Positions 2 to 541 of a stretch of 541 bases of DNA are shown here, piece by piece (position 1 is the first letter of the stretch; the number at the start of each line of letters is the position of its first letter). The notes beneath the pieces are model-generated. The model was not told the DNA's origin, did no database searches, and was given only the letters and a program-made list of their open reading frames with translations. Both the position numbers and the translations under genes were made by a program. The DNA comes from a phage, in sequence record EF517034.1. One strand, given 5' to 3'.

Positions 2-292
2 ACTGTGGAAGCAGGACGAGATGAGATGGCTGTAGGCTCTCACGCTAAGGGTTACAACCACAACTCTATCGGCGTCTGCCTTGTTGGTGGTATCGACGAT
101 AAAGGTAAGTTCGACGCTAACTTTACGCCAGCCCAAATGCAATCCCTTCGCTCACTGCTTGTCACACTGCTGACTAAGTACGAAGGCGCTGTGCTTCGCG
201 CCCATCATGAGGTAGCGCCGAAGGCTTGCCCTTCGTTCGACCTTAAGCGTTGGTGGGAGAAGAACGAACTGATCACTTCTGACCGTGGATAA
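2..292 (+). CDS. 3.5: Phage lysozyme / N-acetylmuramoyl-L-alanine amidase, T7 gp3.5 type (also the T7 RNA polymerase inhibitor); 5'-partial, C-terminal ~96 codons, stop TAA 290-292
   Basis: Frame-2 ORF is open from the window edge to TAA 290-292. Translation TVEAGRDEMAVGSHAKGYNHNSIGVCLVGGIDDKGKFDANFTPAQMQSLRSLLVTLLTKYEGAVLRAHHEVAPKACPSFDLKRWWEKNELITSDRG matches my recollection of the T7 lysozyme C-terminal two-thirds almost residue for residue, including the zinc-ligand/catalytic cluster AHH...K.C (His codon 203-205, Lys 221-223, Cys 227-229). The GTG at 5 used by the ORF track is an internal Val codon, not the real start. Confidence 0.93.
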   Translation, partial: TVEAGRDEMAVGSHAKGYNHNSIGVCLVGGIDDKGKFDANFTPAQMQSLRSLLVTLLTKYEGAVLRAHHEVAPKACPSFDLKRWWEKNELITSDRG

Positions 293-293
293 T

Positions 294-316
294 TAATTGA
301 ACTCACTAAAGGGAGA
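294..316 (+). promoter_or_regulatory. T7 RNA polymerase class II promoter (phi3.8 type), -17 to +6; predicted transcription start at G311
   Basis: TAATTGAACTCACTAAAGGGAGA matches the 23-bp T7 consensus TAATACGACTCACTATAGGGAGA at 19/23 positions. Mismatches are at -13, -12, -11 and -2 (window 298, 299, 300, 309). The invariant CTCACTA core and GGGAGA initiating sequence are intact. It sits 45 nt upstream of the next ATG. Confidence 0.9.
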
Positions 317-335
317 CCACAGCGGTTTCCCTTTG
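307..335 (+). other. RNA hairpin overlapping the promoter initiating region; candidate RNase III processing site (T7 R3.8 type) or 5'-UTR structure
   Basis: Hand-folded stem: 307-318 (TAAAGGGAGACC) pairs with 324-335 (GGTTTCCCTTTG) around loop ACAGC (319-323). That gives 12 bp, 10 Watson-Crick plus 2 G-U (T307-G335, G315-T327). T7 is known to have an RNase III site (R3.8) between phi3.8 and gene 3.8. Assignment to R3.8 is from memory of the T7 map, not computed. Confidence 0.4.
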
Positions 336-343
336 TTCGCATT

Positions 344-349
344 GGAGGT
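344..349 (+). promoter_or_regulatory. Shine-Dalgarno ribosome-binding site for the downstream HNH endonuclease gene
   Basis: GGAGGT is a strong match to the anti-SD complement, with a 6-nt spacer (CAAATA) before ATG 356. Confidence 0.8.
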
Positions 350-355
350 CAAATA

Positions 356-541
356 ATGCGCAAGTCTTATAAACAATTCTATAAGGCTCCGAGGAGGCAT
401 ATCCAAGTGTGGGAGGCAGCCAATGGGCCTATACCAAAAGATTATTATATAGACCACATTGACGGCAATCCACTCAACGACGCCTTAAACAATCTCCGTC
501 TGGCTCTCCCAAAAGAAAACTCATGGAACATGAAGACTCTA
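356..541 (+). CDS. 3.8: HNH (homing-type) endonuclease, T7 gp3.8 type; 3'-partial, N-terminal 62 codons, continues past the window end
   Basis: ATG at 356 is preceded by the SD at 344-349 and lies 45 nt downstream of the promoter +1. The frame is open for 62 codons to the window edge: MRKSYKQFYKAPRRHIQVWEAANGPIPKDYYIDHIDGNPLNDALNNLRLALPKENSWNMKTL. It carries the HNH-family signature DHIDGNPLND..NNLRL...ENSWN (His codon 455-457, Asn codons 467-469 and 476-478). It matches my recollection of the T7 gene 3.8 product. It is absent from the ORF track only because there is no in-window stop. Confidence 0.88.
   Translation, partial: MRKSYKQFYKAPRRHIQVWEAANGPIPKDYYIDHIDGNPLNDALNNLRLALPKENSWNMKTL

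Follow-up and report, generated by a model that had tools for sequence, protein, structure and literature searches.

A promoter-overlapping hairpin upstream of gene 3.8 in a phage T7 sequence is probably the RNase III signal R3.8

The DNA analysed here, a stretch of 541 nucleotides that we call the window, runs from the 3' end of gene 3.5 across an intergenic region into the start of gene 3.8. Record comparison showed that it corresponds to positions 10870-11410 of phage T7, with 98.9% identity over 10870-11408, and no better match was found among 276 records. In the alignment with NC_001604, window 273-440, which contains the whole hairpin region described below, is reference T7 without any change. 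The 7 differences from the reference, all transitions, lie at window positions 10, 173, 214, 272, 441, 488 and 540. On the plus strand they are 6 G>A and 1 C>T, and five of the seven are nonsynonymous (gp3.5 Ala>Thr and Val>Ile; gp3.8 Gly>Asp, Asp>Asn and Pro>Leu). Because this spectrum is one-sided and amino-acid changes are in excess, the transitions look like the product of chemical mutagenesis or artificial alteration rather than natural divergence. The G>A change at 272 makes TGATCA (within 266-279), a GATC site and short palindrome that reference T7, which reads GGTCA, does not have. Two sigma-70-like promoter matches were found, both on the minus strand inside gene 3.8 (441-468 and 376-405), where shuffled sequences lead one to expect 0.3. 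The features of the window are collected in Table 1.

Table 1. Features of the window, with positions counted from its first nucleotide.
Feature	Position	Strand	Basis
Gene 3.5, 3' part (T7 lysozyme/amidase); stop codon 290-292	5..292	+	ORF, T7 annotation
T7 RNA polymerase class II promoter phi3.8 (-17 to +6), TAATTGAACTCACTAAAGGGAGA	294..316	+	annotated +1, consensus match
Possible lower stem, 5' strand UGAAC	298..302	+	MFE of short contexts
Full 12 bp stem-loop; outer pair U307·G335 marginal	307..335	+	folding
Core helix, 5' arm, 11 bp (AAAGGGAGACC)	308..318	+	folding, alignment
Apical loop ACAGC, 5 nt	319..323	+	folding
Core helix, 3' arm (GGUUUCCCUUU)	324..334	+	folding
Possible lower stem, 3' strand GUUCG, within block UUUGUUCGC	335..339	+	folding, alignment
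Second hairpin, 338-344 with 354-360	338..360	+	folding
Gene 3.8, 5' part (HNH endonuclease); AUG 356-358	356..541	+	T7 annotation

The +1 of phi3.8 is annotated in T7 records at T7 11180, which is G311 of the window. The promoter agrees with the 23-bp consensus TAATACGACTCACTATAGGGAGA, in which initiation is at the first G, at 19 of 23 positions, departing from it at -13, -12, -11 and -2. From G311 onwards, GGGAGACC (311-318) pairs with GGTTTCCC (324-331; GGUUUCCC as RNA), and the upstream TAAA (307-310) pairs with TTTG (332-335), which gives a stem 307-318/324-335 of 12 unbroken pairs, G315·U327 and U307·G335 included. A sequence-only reading of the window had claimed this 12 bp stem, built from the +1 arms and TAAA/TTTG, and both the sequence and the folding bear it out. 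That reading had also named the folding of 295-350 as a check for a stable stem, and such a stem is obtained, at -18.7 kcal/mol with z = -2.7 (3 of 200 shuffles were equally good); for 311-360, z falls to -3.5 and 0 of 200 shuffles did as well. Folded as isolated pieces with RNAfold, 307-335 reaches -16.6 kcal/mol and 311-331, the 8 bp version, -12.2. When the surrounding RNA is extended to contexts of 81 to 251 nt, the core pairs 308-318/324-334 keep a probability of 0.91-1.0, and the outermost pair U307·G335 has one of 0.28-0.55. When the window was shuffled 1000 times with its dinucleotides preserved, 1.0% of the shuffles held a stem of 12 or more unbroken pairs (G·U counted, loop of 3-8). 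In the phi10 leader, and in the majority of close relatives, the apical loop is ACAAC. An Rfam covariance-model search of the window matched no family at the hairpin, its sole match lying elsewhere in the window at chance level (E = 0.54). Window 308-310 is promoter -3 to -1 and is present only in read-through RNA, that is, in transcripts that come from upstream promoters. Folding thus agrees with the earlier proposal that read-through RNA would carry the full stem and RNA started at G311 the inner 8 bp only.

We read the hairpin at 307-335 as the RNase III signal R3.8 overlapping phi3.8, with a probability of roughly 0.85. The overlap of phi3.8 and R3.8 is an already known arrangement of T7 and is not new here. 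Both are reportedly on the T7 map that Dunn and Studier published in 1983. In published transcript data, transcription from phi3.8 starts upstream of R3.8, and read coverage drops past this cleavage site (PMC6938266), and R3.8 appears as a strong site in a drawing made after Dunn & Studier 1983 (PMC5592923); both papers come from the Wilke and Bull groups, and in neither is a coordinate given for R3.8. The feature tables of V01146, NC_001604, AY264774, PP384393 and YpsP-G give promoters and CDS but no RNase III features, and the absence of R3.8 from them is uninformative because even the early RNase III sites are unlisted there.

As for the position of the cut, the sequence-only reading had put R3.8 about 23 nt past the phi3.8 start. 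This agrees with T7 11203, which we take to be the coordinate of R3.8 in the T7 sequence of Dunn & Studier 1983 (GenBank V01146) and which is U334 of the window; that coordinate may originally have been placed by sequence inspection rather than by end mapping. To test this coordinate, we folded the T7 genome around ten RNase III coordinates attributed to the same source, R3.8 among them. The others are 890, 1468, 3138, 5887, 6448, 13892, 18563 and 36856, with R13 in addition. Eight of these nine fall exactly on a canonical cut of the CCUUUAU^GAU type, R13 being the exception, and the eight canonical cuts lie 3 nt past an upper stem of 9-13 bp. Because eight of the nine companions of R3.8 land on a canonical cut, the set is internally sound and the R3.8 coordinate in it probably so. 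The cut so placed falls at CCCUUU^GUUCG, between U334 and G335, at the base of the 3' arm. At this same locus of T7 (11180 and 11203) the element is identical to that of the window, whose 7 transitions lie elsewhere.

R3.8 can be set beside the other processing sites of T7. The canonical sites R0.3, R0.5, R1, R1.1, R1.3, R4.7, R6.5 and R18.5 are, like R3.8, hairpins of polycistronic transcripts with a cut on the 3' side, 11-14 nt past the loop, by which the upstream RNA retains a 3' hairpin. Unlike them, R3.8 has neither the canonical consensus CAAGGUC...GGCCUUUAU^GAU (also given as CAAGGUC...GGCCUUUAUGAU) nor the 3-nt internal loop on the 3' side that marks the eight canonical T7 sites and that R13 likewise does without; its cut would lie at the bottom of an unbroken helix of 11 bp, the 5' arm of which is the promoter. 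R6.5/phi6.5 and R13/phi13 resemble R3.8 in having a promoter embedded in the RNase III hairpin, and at all three sites the RNA from the site's own promoter lacks part of the 5' arm. R6.5 differs in being a canonical site with its promoter in the apical part, whereas at R13, described as weak (PMC5592923), the promoter is the 3' arm. Canonical T7-style hairpins, CUCAAGGUC...GGCCUUUAUGAUU, were also seen in the KP32-type phage KN4-1 (L093), at 6605-6660 and 7131-7190, after two early-region promoters, so the canonical site type is common to these genera.

We then compared the hairpin with the substrate rules of E. coli RNase III. According to Pertzev & Nicholson (PMC1540722), substrates typically comprise two helical turns, for which stacked short helices suffice, and internal loops or bulges limit cutting to one strand, which leaves protective 3' hairpins. 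The shortest helix with significant reactivity has 11 bp between cut and loop; one pair fewer gives a 50-fold lower reactivity and two fewer give no cleavage (PMC1540722). The optimal proximal box is GC, AU/UA, AU, AU/UA (pb1-pb4), the last pair adjoining the scissile bond; for the distal box the optimum, which is not an absolute requirement, is UA/UG (PMC1540722). If the cut does lie after U334, the read-through helix above it has exactly the 11 bp of this minimum, and G311-C331, A310-U332, A309-U333 and A308-U334 match the proximal box in pair identities, strand orientation aside. The 11 bp cut-to-loop helix and the proximal box are common to the hairpin and the published substrate; the differences are a distal box that is CG/CG (loop-proximal pairs C317-G325 and C318-G324) and not UA/UG, and a loop that has 5 nt and is not a tetraloop. 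Without the weak lower stem, the total helix is shorter than the two turns of a typical substrate. In transcripts that begin at G311 the helix counts 8 bp, three below the minimum. Judged by the 11 bp rule, with 11 bp on one side and 8 bp on the other, we lean towards the view that the two transcript classes would be processed differently, only the read-through RNA being cut; a difference of this kind had been suggested in the sequence-only reading, and it fits what the rule would predict.

The lower stem (298-302/335-339), which spans a 5-nt bulge UCACU at 303-307 and would raise the total to 16 bp, is opened in short contexts by G335 pairing with C302 instead of U307. Its probability is 0.5-0.6 within 280-360 and 0.01-0.07 in longer contexts; the second hairpin competes with it and replaces its pairing in longer RNAs. 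In that second hairpin the Shine-Dalgarno sequence of gene 3.8 lies largely in the loop and the AUG in the stem. Across relatives 74% of the cells of the lower stem are paired, and it cannot form in T3-like phages, in which the 5' partner GAAC is replaced by ACAC. The GAAC at promoter -12 to -9 was first read as specific to phi3.8 and as evidence for the lower stem, a reading that was dropped; other class II promoters of fPS-53 also have GAAC or CAAC. The 3' flank UUUGUUCGC (332-340) is conserved across genera, T3-like phages included, and because these keep GUUCGC without GAAC, pairing alone does not account for its conservation. With GAAC or CAAC at other fPS-53 promoters and a partnerless GUUCGC in T3-like phages, the lower stem is unproven.

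Conservation of the element was assessed in relatives. A scan of IMG/VR for lysozyme relatives gave 71 loci, and annotated phage records added more. The promoter and hairpin precede gene 4 and follow either the lysozyme gene or a single small ORF inserted behind it, in phages of the T7 type, the T3 type (Teetrevirus), the KP32 type (Przondovirus) and the Rambo type, as well as in fPS-53 (Helsettvirus; promoter of the element independently annotated), pEp_SNUABM_03, L024/L025 and PRF-SP1 phages. A covariance model built on three T7-like sequences led to 19 orthologous sites, from T7-, T3-, KP32-, Rambo-, fPS-53- and pEp03-type phages. In the covariance-model alignment of these 19 sites, pairing in the 11 bp core helix reaches 99%, and 4 of its pairs, promoter position -2 among them, changed on both sides. 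The whole 16-pair structure is 91.5% paired, a level that 0 of 500 shuffles reach; shifting the partners by 1-3 columns gives 43-59%. Being fitted to the structure, this alignment is biased in its favour, and the independent lineages in it are few. A manual structural alignment of 8 lineages agrees with it: pairs +1 to +8 are kept in 8 of 8, with changes on both sides at +4, +6 and +7, and pairs -1 to -4 are each kept in 6 of 8. MAFFT alignments A2 and A3, in which the KP32-type 3' arm is one column off register, were left out of the pair counts.

The surroundings of the element vary among these phages. Gene 3.8 is missing in many close relatives (L008, L011, L013-L015, L018-L020, L079 and L089), which diverge from T7 just past GTTCGCAWT (about window 343) and run straight into gene 4 (MELEQ...SVFLYH). 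Because they leave the T7 sequence at this point and enter gene 4, gene 3.8 seems to have been inserted behind the conserved promoter/hairpin, ahead of gene 4. T3-like and some other phages have a small ORF between the lysozyme gene and the element (L006 1606-1645, L080 358-398, L009 1588-1626 and L027 1604-1633); the element then lies about 100 nt further downstream and is otherwise conserved.

Such conservation could also be expected if the hairpin were solely the 5' leader of phi3.8-initiated RNA, acting in mRNA stability or promoter clearance, with the pairing of -1 to -4 incidental. The arrangement GGGAGACC-loop-GGTTTCCC starting at +1 is that of the phi10-type leader: the T7 phi10 leader stem-loop (GGGAGACCACAACGGTTTCCC, the 5' hairpin of pET vectors, at 22904-22924 of the T7 genome L078) has the same 8 bp hairpin, is identical to that of phi3.8 at 20 of 21 nt and likewise begins at +1, and the two promoter-leader units look, from their sequences, like paralogous copies. 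Among the 17 T7 promoters compared, phi13 and phi17 also form hairpins from +1. With the covariance model, further copies were found ahead of gene 9 in Rambo (at 20658) and in fPS-53 (at 20288), and the same arms, GGGAGACC/GGTTTCCC, follow a KN4-1 promoter at 34795. The compensatory changes that keep +1 to +8 paired in all 8 lineages would serve a leader equally, and fPS-53, whose promoters have TT at -2 and -1, retains the 8 bp with positions -1 and -2 unpaired, a counter-example to conservation of the longer helix. Three observations speak against a leader role alone. Firstly, positions -3 to -1, which phi3.8-initiated RNA does not contain, are paired at 18 of the 19 orthologous sites, and -2 co-varies with window 333: the T7 and T3 groups have A-U at this pair, the KP32 group has C-G. 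Secondly, all 12 other phage promoters of KN4-1 read CACTATAG and only that of the element reads CACTACAG, with C and not T at -2, so that the departure from the promoter consensus is confined to the element. Since -2 is absent from phi3.8-initiated RNA, selection on this pair indicates that it has a part to play in read-through RNA, which is what processing by RNase III would require. Thirdly, the literature has R3.8 here as a strong cleavage site (PMC6938266, PMC5592923). We consider it improbable that the hairpin is a leader and nothing else; a leader role and an RNase III role are compatible, not exclusive.

The related hairpins also show how far the 11 bp rule reaches. At phi10, unlike phi3.8, a U opposite C at -2 breaks the read-through helix, leaving 9 bp, a mismatch and then 3 bp. 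To our knowledge no RNase III site is listed at phi10, which fits, because its helix is broken after 9 bp. The read-through stem of phi17 has 14 uninterrupted bp, promoter -6 to -1 included (L078, 34560-34596). We know of no RNase III site listed at phi17 either, though its stem exceeds the 11 bp minimum, and for this reason the 11 bp rule alone does not explain everything.

A second alternative is that the stem-loop and the UUUGUU after it act on E. coli or T7 RNA polymerase as a weak terminator or a pause site. The stem is G+C-rich and is followed by a U-rich tract (CCCUUUGUU), and the flanks CUCUGUU (L024) and CCUGUUG (KP32 group) of relatives resemble ATCTGTT, the T7 class II pause motif. 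The window, however, reads TTTGTT, without the A and the C of this motif, no terminator is annotated here, and genes 3.8 and 4 need expression from upstream promoters. An intrinsic terminator, scanned for as a G+C-rich stem followed by at least 5 T in 8, was rejected, the scan finding no terminator-like site in the window, and there is no terminator after gene 3.8 in the account of T7 transcription of PMC6938266. We hold termination or pausing at this hairpin to be very unlikely. That the inverted repeat is a functionless chance feature is scarcely credible: a stem this long or longer is found in about 1% of shuffled 541-nt windows, but the helix persists in several genera, where changes in one arm are compensated in the other, and it lies at a processing site already described; the covariation effectively refutes chance.

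On the reading of the hairpin as R3.8, two signals of T7 would overlap within window 294-339: phi3.8, a class II promoter, and R3.8, a processing signal for the host's RNase III. T7 RNA polymerase coming from upstream promoters (phi1.1A to phi2.5) would transcribe across phi3.8, and in this RNA the copy of promoter -3 to +8 (308-318) would pair with 324-334 into an 11 bp helix with a 5-nt loop, possibly stacked on the lower stem 298-302/335-339. E. coli RNase III would then presumably make a single cut on the 3' side at the helix base, probably after U334. The upstream mRNA (genes up to 3.5) would be left with a stable 3' hairpin, shielding it from 3' exonucleases, and the downstream mRNA (3.8, 4 and onward) would start with pG335 and an unstructured leader, 9 nt before the Shine-Dalgarno sequence. 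RNA started at G311, without 308-310, would instead fold an 8 bp hairpin at its 5' end, the same as that of the phi10 leader and not long enough for RNase III; we infer that this phi3.8-initiated RNA would escape the cut and retain a triphosphorylated, structured 5' end.

More tentatively, and with the odds against it in our estimate, the promoter and hairpin before gene 4 might be a conserved device of the Studiervirinae that sorts transcripts by where they start, the phi10- and phi17-type copies being perhaps conditionally cleaved RNase III sites. If this were true, selection would hold promoter -3 to -1, against the consensus, in the 11 bp helix; only read-through RNA would be cut, and locally initiated RNA would retain a protective 5' hairpin; and the copies at phi10, at phi17 and in the orthologues would be unrecognised RNase III sites that follow the same rule. 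What the present analysis adds to the known arrangement is modest: comparative evidence of selection on the stem, including promoter nucleotides that are present only in read-through RNA, and an exact 11 bp fit, which would be a simple, testable reason for the two transcript classes to have differing 5' ends. Such differing 5' ends would bear on models of T7 class II mRNA decay (PMC6938266).
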